Below, in pieces: positions 1-7,545 of a stretch of 7,545 nucleotides of DNA. The translations under genes and the position numbers were made by a program. Numbering within the stretch: position 1 is the stretch's first letter; each line of letters opens with the position of its first letter. The stretch comes from a virus (Duplodnaviria; Heunggongvirae; Uroviricota; Caudoviricetes): the IMG/VR virus record IMGVR_UViG_2693429524_000008. One strand, 5' to 3'. The notes under the pieces were generated by a model. That model saw only the letters and a program-made list of their open reading frames with translations. It was not told the origin of the DNA and searched no databases.

Positions 1-111
1 CATACTCCTCCGGCAGAAGCAGAAAAAGCTTATTATGCTTCCATCGGAAACGATGATCTGGCAGCCTGAGTTCACAGATAAAACACTCTCCAGGAAACCC
101 GGGGCGGTTCA
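1..111 (+). mobile_element. 3' terminal fragment of an IS3-family insertion sequence (IS629/IS1203-like): transposase OrfB C-terminus (1..69) plus about 25 bp right terminal inverted repeat (87..111); element body lies outside the window to the left
   Basis: Seen: 1..111 is the exact reverse complement of 7435..7545. Frame +1 of 1..69 reads HTPPAEAEKAYYASIGNDDLAA-stop, which fits the conserved C-terminal tail of IS3-family DDE transposases. Read from the tip the end is 5'-TGAACCGCCCCGGGTTTCCTGGAGA, the TG...CA terminus typical of IS3-family inverted repeats. The IS629-like assignment is from memory, not a database hit. Confidence 0.6.
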
Positions 112-530
112 GGTTTTGGCGTGTATTCTGGAACAGGTTTCCCTTTTTTTCTGCATGCTTCTGCCCTGAGTCTCCAGTTTTCCTCATGACGCCGGTTCGT
201 CATTTTCTGCATTGCTGAATAAATTTTTGATTCAGTAATGTCTCTTAGTTGCATTCCTGCGAAATGTTGAAGCCAGAATCCGATCCGGCTTTTGTCATCG
301 TCCAGTGATTTTTTATGTGCTTTCTCTTCAAGCCACCTGACACACGCTTCCTCGAACGTTATATCAGGTATTTCACCAAGTTTGCTGACCCGCCATGCTT
401 CAGCCTTTAGCTTGTCATGGAGTTCTGTCGCCTGCCTTTTGTCCTTTGTTCCAAGAGACTGTTTAAATCTTTTACCGTTCGGCAATGTGAAACTGGCGTA
501 CCATATTTCACCTCTGCGGAAGAGTGACAT
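72..530 (-). pseudogene. int: Phage tyrosine integrase, N-terminal fragment only (integrase-derived part 112..530, about 139 codons; the last 13 codons and stop are read from IS sequence)
   Basis: ORF 72..530 (152 aa) begins [31 protein letters not shown]..., recalled as the N-terminus of DLP12/IntD-like lambdoid integrases (arm-binding and start of core-binding domain). The catalytic domain with the R/H-x-x-R/Y active-site residues is completely absent. Integrase-like sequence stops at the IS junction at 111/112. Position next to xis and orientation are lambdoid-typical. Confidence 0.75.
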
Positions 531-757
531 TTTCTTTCCTCTGTTATGCCATCACCCGCGCTCACCTGGACAGTATGCAGCGGAGACTGAAGAGCCGCAA
601 TGCAGGCTTGTCGTGTTGTGAGGTAAGGAGATTTATTCTTAGTGGGATCTTTGCGTGTTGCCTGAAGACGCCCTGTGCGTATCCAGTTAATGGCAGTCGG
701 TCTGGATATCTTGAGAAAATGACAGGCCTCATCGAGAGTGAGGCTGTATGGCTCCAT
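407..757 (-). CDS. xis: Excisionase-like HTH DNA-binding protein (Xis/AlpA family), 116 aa
   Basis: Within ORF 407..841; start chosen at the internal ATG 755..757 ([31 protein letters not shown]...), which has a GAGGTG Shine-Dalgarno about 8 nt upstream and overlaps the stop of the upstream gene as TAATG. The HTH segment resembles excisionase/AlpA-type regulators. Lies immediately upstream of and overlapping int (407..530), as in lambdoid int-xis modules. Confidence 0.55.
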
Positions 758-1062
758 TATTTCACCTCTTGCTGTGACATTGTTGAAAAATGGATACCAG
801 CTCGTTGCTGCCAGACGATCCAACCGAGAGTCATATCCCATGCCATGTATTCGTTATCGCCGTTTTTTGCTCTCCGACGATCTACTAAGTCACCGAAACG
901 CTTTTCCATGAATAATTCATAAGCTTCGCGTTCATCTGGTTCTACTTCCAGAGATAGGAGTGCGATTTCATAAGCACGGCGCTCAATATCGTCTCGCACG
1001 TCAAGGCTGCTGATACGCTCTTTAATTTCTTTAATCAGTTCTTTGTCGGTAAAAGTGGTCAT
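757..1062 (-). CDS. Hypothetical small acidic phage protein, 101 aa
   Basis: ORF MTTFTDKELIKEIKERISSLDVRDDIERRAYEIALLSLEVEPDEREAYELFMEKRF...; its start overlaps the upstream stop as TAATG (1060..1064) and its stop overlaps the xis start as TAATG (755..759), indicating translational coupling in a leftward operon. No recognisable domain. Confidence 0.5.
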   Translation of the reverse strand: MTTFTDKELIKEIKERISSLDVRDDIERRAYEIALLSLEVEPDEREAYELFMEKRFGDLVDRRRAKNGDNEYMAWDMTLGWIVWQQRAGIHFSTMSQQEVK

Positions 1063-1424
1063 TATGCTCCAGCCTCCGGTGCTTTTGGCATTACTGCCCA
1101 GTGAGTGATATTGACGTTTTCAAGGTCCCCAACCTGAAATGTCCACTGCCATTCTCCGGTTTCTTTTTGTCCCCAGGTGTACCAGAGAGAACGCCAACCA
1201 ATTAGCCAGCCTTCTCCGTTAGCATCGAATAACAAAACACTTTCATTTGCTGGTGGCAGTTCAGTTGACACTGGTATTACTTTGTTTTCCTGTGCTGCAC
1301 ATTTAGCTTCAAGCGCATCGAATTTACGCACCAGGTATTCAGCATCTGTTTCATTTACTTTCAGATCTCGCGGTACACATCTCCCACGAAGAAACCCTTC
1401 CATTTCGAAAACATTCATGCGCAT
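1062..1424 (-). CDS. DUF551-domain phage protein, 120 aa (alternative start at ATG 1416..1418, which overlaps the upstream stop as ATGA)
   Basis: C-terminal segment ...ESVLLFDANGEGWLIGWRSLWYTWGQKETGEWQWTFQVGDLENVNITHWAVMPKAPE matches the recalled DUF551 pattern (W-rich, ending in a THW-x-x-P-x-x-P motif) common in lambdoid early-left regions. Confidence 0.6.
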   Translation of the reverse strand: MRMNVFEMEGFLRGRCVPRDLKVNETDAEYLVRKFDALEAKCAAQENKVIPVSTELPPANESVLLFDANGEGWLIGWRSLWYTWGQKETGEWQWTFQVGDLENVNITHWAVMPKAPEAGA

Positions 1425-1951
1425 TTGCGTAACTCCGATAACTCGTTAAAGCGTTCCATAAACATCCCGTAGGCATGGCCCGGTGCCAGTGGAATCACGT
1501 TGAACATCTCTGTTGCCGGGATACCTTCCAGTACAGGCCAGAAAGAGCCATCATCAAGCCCGAGATCGCGGCGTTCGGTTGCCAGCATGATGAGATCGGC
1601 ATATTTCACGGGCGTACTCATAACTGGGGGTAACCCGTATTTCTCACGGATTACGGCGTCTATTTTTTCTTCCATTTGTTTATAGTCAGGAAGAAGGCGT
1701 TTCAGTGGTGCGGGAATGTCCTGGCAATACGCTTCTGTTGCATCATGCATTAACGCTTCAAAAGCAAATTCCTGCGGCACCAACTGGCTGCAAAGAACCG
1801 CATGTTGGGCGACGCTGTAGAAGTGCGAAAGATGACCGGCAAAGCGACAGATATTTGAAAGGGAAACCGCGATATCGTTAATATCGATGTCGTCTTTATT
1901 TATCCTGTCATAATAAAAATGCTTCCCGGAAAAAGTTTTAATAAATGACAT
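1415..1951 (-). CDS. yfdR: HD-domain 5'-deoxynucleotidase, YfdR-like (YfbR family), 178 aa
   Basis: Within ORF 1415..1978; start placed at ATG 1949..1951 (MSFIKTFSGKHFYYD...) because of a GGAGAA Shine-Dalgarno 6 nt upstream. HD-domain metal-binding signature visible (H..H in HLSHFYSVAQH and HD in EALMHDATEAY). Length and N-terminus match my recollection of the CPS-53 prophage protein YfdR. Confidence 0.7.
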   Translation of the reverse strand: MSFIKTFSGKHFYYDRINKDDIDINDIAVSLSNICRFAGHLSHFYSVAQHAVLCSQLVPQEFAFEALMHDATEAYCQDIPAPLKRLLPDYKQMEEKIDAVIREKYGLPPVMSTPVKYADLIMLATERRDLGLDDGSFWPVLEGIPATEMFNVIPLAPGHAYGMFMERFNELSELRKCA

Positions 1952-2044
1952 TTTGTTCTCCACGTATATGCGCTGCACCGCGCTGAATTTTGGTTAAAGA
2001 AAACCCTCGCCATCAGGCGATTATTGAGTTAATTACGTTTCTAT

Positions 2045-2066
2045 AAATGCCCCCGCAGGGGCATTT
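2045..2066. other. GC-rich hairpin (9-bp stem AAATGCCCC / GGGGCATTT, 4-nt loop) in the yfdQ-like to yfdR-like intergenic spacer
   Basis: Perfect inverted repeat seen directly; no U-tract follows on either strand, so it is not a canonical intrinsic terminator. Confidence 0.4.
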
Positions 2067-2078
2067 GCAGTAATGAAA

Positions 2079-2903
2079 TCAGGCGGTGAAAGTACCAATA
2101 AAGGTTTCTACTTTGCTGTCTTTGAATTTTTCAACAAGCAGATTACGAAATTCGTTAGCCATTTCTTCCTGTACTGCTTCCAGCTGAATAATGCGCAGAA
2201 CCAGTACAGGGCGATCACCAGTGATAATGCTGAGGCGTAATTTAAACGGACGTTCTTTCAGGCCTTCAAACGGAACGCATTTAAACTCAAATGCTACTGG
2301 CATAATGTCTTTAGTTTTCGCTTCGACAGACTCCATCAGAGAGCGTTTGCCGCTGAAGTCATTGTCTTCAAAATCAGCGGTCTGGTTTGCTTCAATCGTG
2401 ATTTTACGGACCGCCGCAGCCGCTTTTGTTGCCTGAATGGCGTCACCATTAGCATCAAAGCCCACAAGGTAGTCGGCCCAGTCTTCAATCCATTCTGCCA
2501 GTGACTTCTGGGAGTTACGCTCGCCGTTAACAGACAACAGGGCAGAGAACGGTGCTGTCTTTTTCAGTTTGAGAGTGGCGGTGTTATCTGCGTGACCTGG
2601 TTCATCAATAGTACCCAGGTTAAGCACACTGACGGCTCGCATATTATCAGCATCGATAAAGCAGCGGGTGCTTTCATCTGCAAGATCTTTAGAATAACGG
2701 GTAAAGTCATCGATGCTGGCAGTGGAAAGCGCACCACGGAAACGGAAGCGATTTAAATTAAATTTTTCCAGATCATGAATGCGGAAATTCTCAGGCAATG
2801 CCACAGCATCGGCACCAATCTTACTGATAATTTCATTAACACCCTGAGCAGAAATAAGGGCATGGATTTGATTAATTTCGGTTGCGTCTAAGTTCTGAGA
2901 CAT
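2079..2903 (-). CDS. yfdQ: YfdQ-like DUF2303 family prophage protein, 274 aa
   Basis: Long clean ORF with a GAGGA Shine-Dalgarno 6 nt upstream of ATG 2901..2903. Sequence ([33 protein letters not shown]...) and length agree with my recollection of CPS-53 YfdQ; synteny between the YfdP-like and YfdR-like genes supports this. Confidence 0.65.
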
Positions 2904-2968
2904 AATAAGTCCTCACTATATAAAGATATTCAGTGATGAGATAAATAATCAGTTAATTAAGAACGATA

Positions 2969-3331
2969 TTAATGACCTGCTGCGCGGAGTTTTCCGTCAG
3001 GCTCACCGGCAAGAGTCAGTAATTGTCCCTGGTCTTCCTGCAGAATAGTCAGGCGACCACCGCGATTGACATACATCGGTGTTTCGGTGGTGTCTTCTTC
3101 GGAAATTTTCCCGCGGTTAGTCGGGCGAACATATGAGAGTTTGTGTTTGATTTTCACACGGTTCTCATCAAATGGTTCGATTTCCAGGTTGAGCGAGACC
3201 TTACCTTTGGTTTTCGTGTTCATCACACCGGAAGCGACTTCACTGAGAACTGCGCCGATTTTGGTTTCAAATACGCCGCCGTCCAGCTCCCCGATAAATG
3301 CCTGCACATCAGTACTGCGTTCGCTAGCCAT
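2969..3331 (-). CDS. yfdP: YfdP-like small prophage protein, 120 aa (the longer ORF to 3517 is probably upstream read-through)
   Basis: Start placed at ATG 3329..3331 (MASERSTDVQAFIGELDGG...) because AGGAG lies 7 nt upstream; the 62 codons above it are Cys/Arg/His-rich and not protein-like. Gene order P then Q then R on the minus strand matches the yfdP-yfdQ-yfdR order recalled for E. coli K-12 CPS-53. Confidence 0.5.
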   Translation of the reverse strand: MASERSTDVQAFIGELDGGVFETKIGAVLSEVASGVMNTKTKGKVSLNLEIEPFDENRVKIKHKLSYVRPTNRGKISEEDTTETPMYVNRGGRLTILQEDQGQLLTLAGEPDGKLRAAGH

Positions 3332-3379
3332 TTTGCTGCTCCTCATCATATCGACCCTGCAAGGTCGGTTAGTTTCTCC

Positions 3380-3468
3380 ACAAAACAGAGAAGAACACCT
3401 GCGGTGGCAGCCGCCCGGATGGATTGGGTTATGAGCCCGTCGTCCGGTGATGCTCTTCTCTGTTTTGT
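3380..3468. repeat. Long-range inverted repeat: 15-bp perfect arms (3380..3394 and 3454..3468) separated by 59 nt, in the untranslated leader upstream of the yfdP-like gene
   Basis: 3381..3394 CAAAACAGAGAAGA is the exact reverse complement of 3454..3467, with one further A/T pair at 3380/3468. Confidence 0.5.
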
Positions 3469-3946
3469 AAAAAGAGCGGTACCAGCCGGAAGCAAGTGTA
3501 CAAACTGGTACCGCCAAAGCAGTGGCTGTTGTGGTGACCGGTGCTGATCTCCGGCTTGCGGTTATTTCAGACTCTCACGGGCGTTTAATTGCCCCGCCGA
3601 ACAGCTCTTTTCCGCAATAGCTGCAATGTCTTTCGCGCATCAGTCTGCGCATTCACCACAACGCTGAGAGCACTTAGCCAGTTACGGCACCACACTTTGT
3701 CGCGGTTCCATAAATGCCCTCATCGTTGCACCCTGGTCTCTTCCCAGGCGTCAAACCGAATCGCCACGCTGGTTAGGCGTCTTATCAGCATCATCATTGA
3801 CTTGCACATTCCGGCTACCTGGTTTGTTTGCTCGAGCAAGGAGTGGATTGTCCCCTTTAACGTCACCAGACCGCTAACGACGCATGTGCCATACGCCGTG
3901 TTACAACCAAATTTTGTTTTAATCTTGCCTGTGTTATGTTTCTTTT

Positions 3947-3980
3947 AGATACATTGTGTATCTCATGGATACATTGTCAA
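3947..3980 (-). promoter_or_regulatory. Candidate leftward early promoter (pL-like) with overlapping operator: minus-strand -35 TTGACA (3975..3980), 16-nt spacer, -10 CACAAT (3953..3958); perfect 17-bp palindrome AGATACA-TTG-TGTATCT (3947..3963) plus a second GATACATTG half-site copy (3968..3976)
   Basis: Consensus -35 hexamer and palindrome seen directly; the -10 is weak (lacks the first T). Position immediately downstream of the repressor terminator and upstream of the leftward gene block fits an oL/pL arrangement. Confidence 0.4.
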
Positions 3981-3983
3981 GTA

Positions 3984-4006
3984 TAAAAAAACCTGCCGAA
4001 GCAGGT
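3984..4006 (-). terminator. Rho-independent terminator for the repressor gene (minus-strand RNA: ACCUGC-UUCG-GCAGGU followed by a U-tract)
   Basis: 6-bp perfect stem (3991..3996 / 4001..4006) with a UUCG tetraloop, followed on the minus strand by a run of six to seven T (3984..3990), beginning 13 nt after the repressor stop codon (4020..4022). Confidence 0.7.
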
Positions 4007-4019
4007 TCATAAATATTGA

Positions 4020-4694
4020 TTAGGCCTTTATTGTGTATCTTCTTGGTTTTCCCGAGAAAATCACTGTACCAATTATAGAGCAATTACCGTTAATCTTAAT
4101 GTAAGGCTCAGGCCAGTTTGGGTTTAATGCTTTGAGATAACGCTGTGTTCCATCTTCTATCAATCGCTTGAAGGTGGTTTCGCCTGTATCGTGCATCAAT
4201 GCAATAACGTCGTCACCGTGGCAGGCAGGGACTTCGGGATCAACAAAAATCATGTCTCCAGGGCGGTACTCATCAATCATTGAATCACCAATCACCCGCA
4301 AGATATAAGTCATTTCGCCACAGGGTACAGGGCAGGGATACGTTTCTGCTGTGCTCAAATCAACCTCAGAATAGCCAACTTCTTTCCATGCTCCGGCCTG
4401 TACCCATGATATGACAGGGACTAACGTTATTTGTTTGTTAGTGATTGAAACATCAGGTTTTTTTGTGATGTTCGTTGTCTGGTGTTCTTGATCAAGCCAT
4501 CCGACAGGCAGGTCGAAACATTTTTCGATGTGCCGTGCCATGCTGTCACCGATATTTTTAGTAGCGCCATCCCCCATAAACCTGCTGGTCTGGGTTGGCT
4601 CGCGATCAATCATGGTGGCAAAGGATGAATTTCCGCCAACACCATCTCTCAGTTTTCTGGCGTTAGACCGCCGGATGTCATGGATTGTTTTCAT
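4020..4694 (-). CDS. CI-like prophage repressor: N-terminal HTH domain plus C-terminal S24 (LexA/UmuD-like) autopeptidase domain, 224 aa
   Basis: C-terminal half carries the S24 signature: putative Ala-Gly cleavage site (VQAGAW), Ser nucleophile in VIGDSM and Lys in TFKRL. Divergently oriented to a Cro-like gene across an operator-bearing spacer. Confidence 0.8.
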   Translation of the reverse strand: MKTIHDIRRSNARKLRDGVGGNSSFATMIDREPTQTSRFMGDGATKNIGDSMARHIEKCFDLPVGWLDQEHQTTNITKKPDVSITNKQITLVPVISWVQAGAWKEVGYSEVDLSTAETYPCPVPCGEMTYILRVIGDSMIDEYRPGDMIFVDPEVPACHGDDVIALMHDTGETTFKRLIEDGTQRYLKALNPNWPEPYIKINGNCSIIGTVIFSGKPRRYTIKA

Positions 4695-4710
4695 AACGAA
4701 ATTAAAACCT

Positions 4711-4780
4711 TTGTACCGATAAGGTACAAGTATCTTGAGGGTTCATTTCAATCATGTAATATGTATACCGTAGGTACATA
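4711..4780. promoter_or_regulatory. Immunity-region operator/promoter cluster: perfect 19-bp palindrome TTGTACC-GATAA-GGTACAA (4711..4729), imperfect palindrome TGTATACC-GTA-GGTACATA (4762..4780), and a rightward promoter -35 TTGAGG (4735..4740) / -10 TAATAT (4757..4762)
   Basis: Palindromes and hexamers read directly from the 90-bp spacer between the divergent repressor (start 4694) and cro-like (start 4785) genes; the second palindrome overlaps the -10 and predicted transcription start. Confidence 0.5.
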
Positions 4781-4784
4781 TTGT

Positions 4785-4985
4785 ATGAAAGCGTACTGGG
4801 ACTCTTTAACCAAAGAACAGCAGGGCGAGTTGGCCGGAAAAGTTGGCTCAACACCTGGCTACTTACGGCTGGTTTTCAATGGTTATAAAAAAGCCAGTTT
4901 TGTGCTGGCTAAAAAACTTGAGCAATGCACGTCAGGTGCAATTACGAAATCTGACTTAAGACCGGATATCTATCCGAAAGATTAA
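4785..4985 (+). CDS. Cro-like HTH regulator (YdaS/DUF1019-type), 66 aa
   Basis: Within ORF 4680..4985; start placed at ATG 4785 (MKAYWDSLTKEQQGELAGKVGSTPGYLRLVFNGYKKASFVLAKKLEQCTSGAITKSDLRPDIYPKD) because the upstream part of the ORF overlaps the promoter/operators. An HTH followed by the DLRPDI motif is characteristic of YdaS-type Cro proteins. Confidence 0.6.
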   Translation: MKAYWDSLTKEQQGELAGKVGSTPGYLRLVFNGYKKASFVLAKKLEQCTSGAITKSDLRPDIYPKD

Positions 4986-5016
4986 CAGAACACCTTCAAT
5001 TTTTAACCACAGAACG

Positions 5017-5580
5017 ATGAGGCTAACCGTGGGTAAGCATCACTGGAAAGTAGAAAAACAGCCTGAGTGGTACGTGAAAGCTGTCAGAAAAACTATCGCA
5101 GCGTTGCCGGGTGGTTACGCTGAAGCAGCTGACTGGCTGGATGTAACAGAGAACGCATTATTTAACCGCCTTCGTGCCTATGGCGATCAGATTTTCCCGC
5201 TGGGATGGGCAATGGTTTTACAGCGCGCGGCTGGCACTCACTACATTGCGGATGCTGTCGCACAGTCTGCTGGTGGGGTGTTCGTATCGCTTCCTGAAAT
5301 TGAGGAAGTAGAGAACGCCGATATAAACCAGCGCCTGCTGGAAGTCATTGAACAGATCGGCAGTTATTCAAAACAGATTCGTTCAGCAATTGAAGACGGT
5401 GTAGTGGAACCGAATGAGAAGACAGCAATTAACGACGAGCTGTACCTCTCAATTTCGAAGCTGCAGGAGCATGCAGCACTGGTCTACAAAATTTTTTGCA
5501 TTTCAGAAAGTAATGACGCCCGCGAGTGTGCAGCTCCGGGCGCCGTGGCGTGTCGTGACTGTGGAGAAACTAACGCATGA
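5017..5580 (+). CDS. CII-like phage regulatory protein (CP76-type), 187 aa; possible alternative GTG start at 5029 with a GAGG Shine-Dalgarno
   Basis: Position directly after cro; sequence features (WYVKAV..., [37 protein letters not shown]...) match my recollection of the enterobacterial phage CII/CP76 family. Its stop overlaps the next ATG as ATGA (5577..5580). Confidence 0.55.
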
Positions 5581-5915
5581 ACAGTTTAACAACACACTAC
5601 CGTCGCTCGCAACTGATTGCGCTTCCTGTACCGGGTGGAAAAGCGAAGGTGGAGTATTGCTATGCAGTAAATGTACCAGGTGACAGGGAAATTGTAACCC
5701 ACAGCTTTGCAGAGTGGGCTGTGGGTGATTTCAACCGGCAGAAGGAGACAGTCCTTTGCGACAAGTTAACCGCTGGTTCAAAGATCACTACGGAGTGCCC
5801 GTCAGAGTCATTCGTTGGGAGCCGGAAACACAACGGGTTATCTACCTCCGCGAAGGCTATGAGCATGAGTGCTTCAGCCCGCTCGAACAGTTTCGTCGTA
5901 AATTCAGGGAAGTAG
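5577..5915 (+). CDS. Hypothetical ORF, 112 aa; only the N-terminal half looks protein-like, and coding signal moves to another frame from about 5730 (possible frameshifted gene)
   Basis: ATG overlaps the CII-like stop (ATGA). The C-terminal 50 residues are Ser/Ala-rich and low-complexity, while an overlapping frame is clearly protein-like over 5729..5935. Confidence 0.3.
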
Positions 5916-5935
5916 AGGTCGGTCATGAGCACTAA
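5756..5935 (+). CDS. Small hypothetical protein, 59 codons, TTG start (absent from the ATG-only ORF track); alternatively the C-terminal part of a frameshifted gene that begins at 5577
   Basis: Protein-like translation [59 protein letters not shown]; strong Shine-Dalgarno AAGGAG (5742..5747) 8 nt upstream of TTG 5756; the stop (5933..5935) overlaps the next gene's start. Confidence 0.3.
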
Positions 5936-6263
5936 ATTAACCGGCTATGTATGGGATGGTTGCGCTGCATCAGGCATGAAATTATCCAGCGTGGCAATTA
6001 TGGCCCGCCTGGCTGATTTCAGTAATGACGAAGGTGTGTGCTGGCCATCAATTGAAACCATTGCCCGTCAGATTGGCGCGGGGATGAGTACCGTCAGAAC
6101 GGCTATCGCACGGCTGGAAGCAGAAGGCTGGTTAACGCGTAAGGCGCGTCGCCAGGGTAACCGCAATGCGTCGAATGTTTATCAGCTTAACGTTGCGAAG
6201 CTTCAGGCAGCGGCATTTTCTCAACTGTCAGATTCTGACCCGTCAAAATTTCTTACCTGCTGA
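5925..6263 (+). CDS. Winged-helix (HTH_36-like) replication-initiator-type N-terminal domain protein, 112 aa; possibly the 5' remnant of a longer O-like replication gene
   Basis: AGAGG Shine-Dalgarno 6 nt upstream of ATG 5925. Motif ...DEGVCWPSIETIARQIGAGMSTVRTAIARLEAEGWLTRKARRQGNRNASNVYQLN is typical of the HTH domain at the N-terminus of phage replication-initiation proteins. Followed by about 290 bp without a convincing ORF. Confidence 0.55.
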   Translation: MSTKLTGYVWDGCAASGMKLSSVAIMARLADFSNDEGVCWPSIETIARQIGAGMSTVRTAIARLEAEGWLTRKARRQGNRNASNVYQLNVAKLQAAAFSQLSDSDPSKFLTC

Positions 6264-6555: not shown

Positions 6556-7437
6556 ATGAAAAATACTGTAAAAATAAACAGTATTGATTTAATCAACGCT
6601 GATTGCCTGCATTTTATTCAGTCCCTGCCTGATGATTCCATTGACCTGATTGTTACCGATCCGCCTTACTTCAAGGTGAAACCTAACGGTTGGGACAATC
6701 AGTGGAAAGGGGACGAAGATTACCTTAAGTGGCTGGACCACTGTCTGGCCCAGTTCTGGCGGGTGTTAAAACCTGCCGGAAGCCTTTACCTGTTCTGTGG
6801 GCATCGCCTGGCATCTGATATTGAGATCATGATGCGTGAACGTTTCAACGTGCTTAACCATATCATCTGGGCGAAGCCGTCCGGACGTTGGAATGGGTGT
6901 AATAAAGAAAGTCTGCGCGCATATTTTCCTGCCACAGAGCGCGTTCTGTTTGCTGAACATTACCAGGGGCCATATCGCGGCAAAAGTGACGGCTATGCAG
7001 CAAAAGAAAGGGAACTCAAACAGCACATAATGGCACCGCTGATATCGTATTTCAGGGATGCTCGTGCCGAACTGGGTATAACGGCAAAACAAATTGCCGA
7101 AGCCACAGGTAAGAAAAATATGGTTTCCCACTGGTTTGGTGCCAGTCAGTGGCAGTTGCCGAATGAGGCTGACTATCGGAAGTTACAGGCACTGTTTTCC
7201 CGTATAGCGGCAGAGAAGTTTCAGGAACAACAACTGGAACAACCACACCACCAGCTGGTGGCATCTTATGATTCACTGAATCGCAAATATTCTGAATTGC
7301 TGGATGAGTTTAAATCTCTCCGGCGCTATTTCTCCGTATCAGTCTCCGTGCCTTATACCGATGTCTGGATGCATAAACCCGTTCAGTTCTACCCGGGTAA
7401 ACATCCGTGTGAGAAACCGGCGGATATGCTCAGGTGA
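6556..7437 (+). pseudogene. N6-adenine DNA methyltransferase (beta-class, phage Dam-like), 3'-truncated at the IS junction (methyltransferase-derived part 6556..7434)
   Basis: Catalytic motif IV, IVTDPPYF, near the N-terminus; the ORF ends ...YPGKHPCEKPADMLR-stop, six residues after the HP-x-x-KP motif that normally precedes the C-terminal AdoMet-binding motif (DPF-x-GSGTT type), which is missing. The TGA stop (7435..7437) is the first three bases of the IS terminal repeat. Confidence 0.75.
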
Positions 7438-7545
7438 ACCGCCCCGGGTTTCCTGGAGAGTGTTTTATCTGTGAACTCAGGCTGCCAGATCATCGTTTCC
7501 GATGGAAGCATAATAAGCTTTTTCTGCTTCTGCCGGAGGAGTATG
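7435..7545 (-). mobile_element. 3' terminal fragment of a second IS3-family (IS629/IS1203-like) copy in inverted orientation: right terminal inverted repeat starting TGAACC at 7435, transposase C-terminus on the minus strand (7477..7545)
   Basis: Exact reverse complement of 1..111; same reasoning as for the left-hand fragment. Confidence 0.6.

Follow-up and report, generated by a model that had tools for sequence, protein, structure and literature searches.

The window analysed here is the whole of a 7,545-bp contig (CYFD01000103.1) from the Escherichia coli draft assembly GCA_001284405.1, and it carries prophage genes lying between the ends of two inverted copies of an insertion sequence (IS). 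Its features are listed below, with the gene names of the early-left operon taken from the annotation of the prophage locus of E. coli A0 34/86 (L001).

1–111, plus strand: right end (IRR side) of an IS3-family element of the IS629/IS1203 group, with the last 22 transposase codons and the stop codon (67–69); the contig begins inside the IS.
72–530, minus strand: chimeric int' ORF of 152 aa, consisting of int codons 1–139, the split codon 140, 12 IS-encoded codons and a stop.
112–530, minus strand: 5' 419 nt of an SfV/SfIV-type (P22-like) tyrosine integrase gene, covering the N-terminal region upstream of PF00589 and none of that domain.
407–757, minus strand: xis (excisionase, 116 aa), intact; scores 35.1 bits (cut-off 27; E = 1.6e-8) with PF12728 (HTH_17) and has the same protein sequence in L001.
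757–3331, minus strand: early-left operon, with the ORFs of the next five lines.
757–1062, minus strand: yfdT.
1062–1424, minus strand: gene for a DUF551 protein, the stop of which overlaps the yfdT start at 1062 in the manner of the TAATG-type overlap of yfdT and xis.
1415–1951, minus strand: yfdR, 5'-deoxynucleotidase.
2079–2903, minus strand: yfdQ, with G78S relative to L001.
2969–3331, minus strand: yfdP.
4020–4694, minus strand: cI-like LexA/S24 repressor (PF00717, E = 1.5e-26), ymfK in L001.
4785–4985, plus strand: cro-like YdaS/HTH protein (PF15943 below its cut-off), ymfT in L001.
5029–5580, plus strand: cII-like CP76 protein (PF06892, E = 5e-14), ymfL in L001.
5925–6263, plus strand: O-like replication initiator shortened to 112 aa from 313 aa, with a deletion joint at 6249/6250 within iteron-like repeats.
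6556–7437, plus strand: DNA N6/N4 methyltransferase, retaining residues 1–293 of 350; the IS terminus opens with TGA, which serves as its stop codon.
7435–7545, minus strand: second copy, in inverted orientation, of the right (IRR) IS end at 1–111, with which it forms a 111-nt perfect inverted repeat; the contig ends inside the IS.

At the left end of the window, integrase-like sequence gives way abruptly to IS sequence. The boundary can be placed at exactly 111/112, because bases 1–111 are 100% complementary to bases 7435–7545 and are also the last 111 nt of 1310/1311-bp elements at three other loci (L003, L022 and L023), which RefSeq annotates as IS3-family/IS1203 transposase with a programmed frameshift. 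Specifically, the end of the transposase CDS at position 4069 of L003 corresponds to base 69 of the window. Across the junction, the int strand has the sequence CCA AAA CC / T GAA CCG CCC CGG GTT TCC TGG AGA GTG TTT TAT CTG TGA; it can also be written as ...CCAAAACC joined directly to TGAACCGCC..., with the IS terminus (...GGTTCA) ending at base 111. The insertion site lies between int nt 419 and 420 (L001 coordinates 4000/4001), and the split codon 140 still encodes Pro, followed by 12 codons of translated inverted repeat and then by TGA. An earlier preliminary description of this DNA, made from its letters, had the integrase-like sequence stopping exactly at the IS end, which the perfect inverted copies and the identical ends of annotated elements bear out. 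Its count of some 139 integrase codons followed by 13 IS codons was essentially right in coordinates and numbers, and is corrected here to 140 int and 12 IS residues.

The IS belongs to the IS629/IS1203 group by its terminal inverted repeat (TGAACCGCCCCGG...) and, as seen in the matched elements, by a length of ~1310 bp and by orfA and orfB joined through a programmed frameshift. Each copy in the window extends over 111 nt, which are identical between the L003 and L022 elements even though these are 95.7% identical overall, so an isoform cannot be assigned. The two 111-nt IS ends are inverted and face inward with their IRR sides, bracketing a segment of 7.3 kb, and this segment could therefore invert by homologous recombination between the copies. 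We also considered a composite transposon built from the two inverted copies, and rejected it: a sister assembly possesses the copy in int only, which fits sequential, independent insertions.

The breakpoint within the protein was located by the alignment that the preliminary description had called for. Residues 1–140 of the 152-aa ORF are 100% identical to residues 1–140 of the 387-aa integrase of E. coli A0 34/86 (BLASTP, E = 7e-105), and the identity ends at residue 140. In a Pfam search, PF00589 occupies residues 184–355 of the full-length L001 integrase (E = 3.5e-48) and has no match in the 152-aa product. The catalytic residues, R (~215), HxxR (314–317) and Y (349), fall within residues 211–349, all past the break, and the full-length cluster representatives P0001 and P0002 carry PF00589. 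The retained part is thus homologous to tyrosine recombinases and the C-terminal catalytic domain is absent from the ORF, which, judged from the sequence, is a fragment of a PF00589 family member and not a functional member. The absence of the catalytic domain noted in the preliminary description accordingly holds for the ORF and the window; as a statement about the genome it does not, since the window is a draft contig that ends in an IS. Nor does the word "decapitated" fit, as the N-terminus is kept and the C-terminal end is lost. Regarding the start codon, RefSeq places that of the L001 integrase at a TTG at codon 16, giving 372 aa (window 485–530; L001 4374–4419), and the ATG at window position 530 gives the 387-aa form, a length shared with many homologues from Gibbsiella, Salmonella and Citrobacter.

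The int–xis module of L001 shows 99.5–99.7% DNA identity to those of SfIV and SfV, which are functional, serotype-converting phages of Shigella flexneri, 98.7% to that of SfII and about 80% to those of the P22-like phages ST64T and L; between L001 and the window, 10 SNPs and not one indel were counted in 6,138 nt (window 112–6249). At this near-identity, the integrase can be assigned by sequence to the well-characterised, thrW-targeting SfV/SfIV (P22-like) type. The SfV, SfIV and SfII phages integrate at tRNA-Thr (thrW), downstream of proA (PMC3306764). In the intact E. coli relatives L001 and L002, a full-length int lies directly beside tRNA-Thr and proA; no tRNA was found in the window, where the contig terminates within the IS. 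The label "IntD-like" given to the integrase in the preliminary description is correct as a broad description, yet looser than the data allow, because the SfV/SfIV integrase is a near-identical relative. We take IntD of DLP12 to belong to the same lambdoid tyrosine integrase family, with a similar N-terminus (MSLFRR.EIWYAS...) and ~387 aa.

Gene order and the overlap of xis and int are shared with the module of SfV, SfIV and SfII. Unlike these phages, the window holds only int codons 1–140, without gtr/oac serotype-conversion genes and without a tRNA, and the rest of its element is an e14/CPS-53-like mosaic (ymfK/T/L, yfdP–T) rather than an SfV backbone. Elsewhere, three S. flexneri contigs of about 3.1 kb (L009–L011) carry a closely related int allele, P0003, beside an Acyl_transf_3 gene that may represent the O-antigen acetyltransferase cassette of a serotype-converting phage. 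At loci L012 and L021, gtrA/gtrB/gtr genes adjoin IS-broken copies of SfV-type int.

The prophage genes neighbouring int are preserved. The xis gene overlaps the start of int by 124 nt and the stop of yfdT by 1 nt (TAATG, 755–759). It encodes a small HTH_17 protein directly upstream of int and overlapping it, the arrangement of an excisionase gene, and its homologue is annotated as excisionase in SfV, SfIV and SfII. Xis, YfdT, the DUF551 protein, YfdR, YfdP, the cI-like repressor and the cro-like protein are all identical to their L001 counterparts, and the immunity region spans 4020–5580. The L001-identical proteins, the PF12728 match, the TAATG overlap and the 124-nt overlap of xis and int together substantiate the earlier view that xis and the operon upstream of it are intact and tightly packed. 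A promoter scan found no sigma-70-like promoter in window positions 1–1100, which is consistent with transcription from further upstream; terminator-like matches are uninformative. Two repeats lie near the repressor gene, namely an imperfect 25-nt inverted repeat (84% complementary, 39-nt spacer) at 3380–3468, which is non-coding and lies between yfdP and the repressor gene, and a pair of 20-nt direct repeats at 3934–3973, just downstream of the repressor gene. Both may be chance matches.

The disruption of int by the IS is confirmed. We propose that an IS629/IS1203-group element transposed into codon 140 of an SfV/SfIV-type int, and that the result is a pseudogene fragment, composed of the 5' 419 nt of int and the right inverted repeat of the IS, within a cryptic prophage remnant; we hold this explanation with high confidence. 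The product, if made at all, would lack R, HxxR and Y and, because the whole catalytic domain is lost, would neither cut nor rejoin DNA. With Int catalysis lost, and with Xis itself being non-catalytic, the element is inferred to be unable to excise by means of its own genes, although a co-resident SfV/P22-type phage could supply Int in trans. The likeliest arrangement in the genome would be that of a simple insertion, in the order proA, tRNA-Thr, int 3', IS, int 5' and xis. Whatever the arrangement, the O-like origin iterons are joined by a deletion to DNA just upstream of the late-region methylase, and in this strain the methylase is truncated by a second IS copy, leaving the immunity region (cI/cro/cII) and the early-left operon with xis as the intact survivors.

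How much of this arrangement can be read from the window depends on the status of the contig. Short-read assemblers break inside IS copies, and both ends of this contig stop 111 nt inside one. Given breaks in the IS at both ends, the lack of the 3' half of int in the window says nothing about the genome. Whether that half is deleted or lies just across the 1.3-kb IS, int is inactivated either way. The methodological lesson is that deletion of a gene cannot be concluded when it stops at an IS where a short-read contig ends.

A simple IS insertion would place int codons 140–387, attL and tRNA-Thr directly across the 1.3-kb IS, with a 3-bp target duplication (GGT). This is a refinement of the main explanation and not a rival to it, and we incline towards it at slightly better than even chances. 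The break coincides with the exact IS terminus; collinearity with intact relatives extends over 6.1 kb of the remaining prophage, and in the sister assembly it continues into the lysis genes; and int 3' remnants beside thrW are very persistent in E. coli. IEE, moreover, promotes either excision of IS3-family elements or deletion of their flanks (PMC9397093), and its simple-excision activity agrees with a simple insertion, which would in principle be reversible, with int restored by precise excision of the IS. Against this stands that the predicted arrangement lies beyond the window, and that a construct with the predicted reciprocal junction (...GCAACGGACGCTGGT joined directly to TGAACCGCC...) gave no exact full-length match in complete E. 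coli genomes. For the junction present in the window itself, an exact scan of a one-genome-per-species collection returned 0 matches, megablast with a 171-nt junction probe yielded no record covering at least 80% of the probe among 5,426 complete E. coli genomes, and a search of complete E. coli genomes with the whole window found none with this configuration.

Alternatively, an IS-mediated deletion, an inversion or recombination between IS copies could have removed or relocated the int 3' half together with attL, making the 7.3-kb segment an orphan island between inverted IS copies. We regard this as possible, at somewhat below even chances. Inverted IS copies face inward with their IRR ends at both limits of the contig, a geometry that permits inversion, and IEE also makes deletions of IS flanks (PMC9397093). 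Closely similar sites in other genomes have in fact lost the prophage side. The reciprocal-junction probe found two complete genomes, tcmA_3 and PSS-15 (L022 and L023), with the layout proA, tRNA-Thr, an int 3' pseudogene (741 nt as annotated) and an IS629-like element in the same orientation as predicted, and the last 111 nt of this IS are identical to window 1–111. Beyond the IS, which sits 3 bp from the site in the window, lies unrelated non-prophage DNA, with prpD in one genome and IS2 in the other. Similarly, L017 has an IS600 junction at a distance of 1–2 bp, with ecp/ykgJ genes next to it. The tcmA_3 and PSS-15 genomes show that prophage sequence beside this int site does get lost through IS-mediated rearrangement. 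Such a rearrangement fits less well with the sister assembly, which shows only the int::IS junction in an otherwise collinear prophage, so that two sequential simple insertions are the better fit.

The tcmA_3 and PSS-15 loci were also considered as the reciprocal half of the insertion seen in the window, and rejected. Their junction lies at L001 3997/3998 (9114/9115 in L022 and L023), whereas that of the window lies at L001 4001; this leaves a 3-bp gap where a 3-bp duplication would be expected, and the loci are therefore separate events. Two further candidates for the missing half came from protein searches. P0003 (269 aa, S. flexneri), found with the C-terminal 247-aa protein, is not an orphan fragment: it represents another allele, continuous across the breakpoint, and owes its incomplete length solely to the end of its contig. 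P0151 is a 222-aa C-terminal int fragment (MLDKAP...) recorded in 365 blocks of the collection index, the loci listed being those on the longest contigs. In several of these loci a 152-aa gene call stands upstream of P0151, but it stems from a -1 frameshift allele and equals the window ORF in length by coincidence.

The frameshift alleles affect an A7G3A3 tract of int at about codon 130, and were seen at L013, L016, L018, L019 and L020, around positions 5890–5900. A G has been lost in four of these loci and an A in the fifth, which splits int into ORFs of 152 and 222 aa; in the window the tract (138–150) is intact. In the zero frame an A_AAA_AAA heptamer occurs within the tract, and if ribosomes slipped by -1 there on the G-deleted allele, a full-length Int with G130R would result, but this is pure speculation, and homopolymer mutation or sequencing error is the simpler reading.

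That the int/IS join is an assembly artefact, a chimeric contig end produced by repeat collapse with int intact in the genome, is highly improbable. Both contig ends do lie in a repeat, where draft assemblies break. However, the join falls precisely at the IS terminal nucleotide, and De Bruijn contigs enter repeats only on read-supported paths. Additionally, the identical chimeric protein is present in three E. coli draft assemblies (CTT79621.1, CTZ59708.1 and CTZ59826.1, named "prophage integrase [Escherichia coli]"), whose terminal IS lengths differ (111 and 124 nt); since these are independent assemblies, the junction is not a one-off assembly error. The weakest reading, that the 152-aa product is a complete, naturally short protein such as a stand-alone arm-binding regulator, could appeal to an ATG start, an open frame and the retention of the N-terminal region upstream of the catalytic domain, but is already effectively refuted by the 100% identity of 140 residues to a 387-aa enzyme, by the origin of the last 12 residues as translated IS inverted repeat and by the recording of the exact sequence on three contigs only, all from E. 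coli draft assemblies.

The interruption of int is not the sole lesion of the prophage. Collinearity with L001 ends at 6249, inside repeats of the form TCTGAC(C/G)C(G/A)TCAAAAT within the O-like gene, and the sequence to the right of the 6249/6250 joint maps just upstream of the methylase in L003. In relatives, the interval between the corresponding points is occupied by the remainder of O together with yfdN, rusA and the Q antiterminator (after O in L001, before the methylase in L003). The equivalent O-like gene in E. coli Z1323CEC0019 (L004) is tagged by PGAP as "incomplete, missing C-terminus". The joint is shared by the sister assembly (L005, GCA_001283645.1). It is also found in Z1323CEC0019, whose prophage has a different integrase and another chromosomal site, near yjjG; with integrase and site both different, the joint travels within a mosaic module.

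The methylase matches the 350-aa L004 protein at 292 of its 293 residues. It keeps DPPY at residue 35 and has lost the FMGSGST AdoMet motif at about 310–316, and PF01555 matches it at profile positions 1–172 of 221 only. The methylase::IS junction also occurs in the Logan assembly of ERR178206. In the sister assembly, the same int::IS junction is accompanied by an intact methylase followed by lysis genes, which indicates that the insertion into int came first and that the insertion into the methylase is more recent. The preliminary description attributed the immobilisation of the prophage to its integrase; int is indeed interrupted, but it is not int alone, as the deletion from O to upstream of the methylase and the second IS cripple the element too. 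Several independent defects thus make the element a cryptic remnant.

Damage to this integrase is widespread. Among 5,426 complete E. coli genomes, 2,714 contain SfV-type int in whole or in part, and only 1,044 keep 80% of the gene or more. Most carriers have 137–159-nt 3' stubs beside thrW, and O157:H7 strains have an 80% fragment of int. Broken copies of the SfV-type integrase are commoner than intact ones. Among the P0151 loci listed, int carries many independent lesions. IS629-like elements join it at nt 445 and at nt 479 and IS600 does so at about nt 418, a DDE_Tnp_1 transposase gene is found at nt 360, and a further break lies at nt 202.

Comparable cases have been described. IS629 was found in the excisionase gene of an Stx2c prophage, and IS elements are biased towards prophage regions (PMC5359411); cryptic prophages occur at the proA locus (PMC4924310). 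The element in the window resembles IS629/IS1203-disrupted STEC/Shigella prophages, such as the defective pool of O157 Sakai and the cryptic gtr prophages at proA, in having an IS3-family element in the recombination module, further deletions and a retained immunity region. It differs from them in its insertion site, int nt 419/420, which is absent from the complete E. coli genomes searched, and in that the window shows no virulence cargo. The erosion of prophage recombination modules by IS elements is already known as a phenomenon, and the gene family is known as well. The locus thus represents one more case of IS erosion at thrW/proA, which matters little beyond annotation.

Three IS3-family junctions, from two different types of IS, nevertheless fall within 7 bp, in int codons 139–141: that of the IS629/IS1203-like element in the window (L001 4000/4001), that of the IS629-like element in tcmA_3 and PSS-15 (3997/3998) and that of IS600 in L017 (about 4002/4003; about 5921 in L017). 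We consider it unlikely that these codons are a preferred target of IS3-family elements, because two of the three junctions came from searches anchored on this very site, a strong ascertainment bias. In a weaker variant of the hot-spot reading, the retained N-terminal fragment of Int may interfere with incoming SfV-like phages. A real target preference would add modestly to the understanding of how IS elements fix prophages in place; were the site truly a hot spot, IS targeting guided by sequence or structure would systematically trap thrW prophages in the chromosome.
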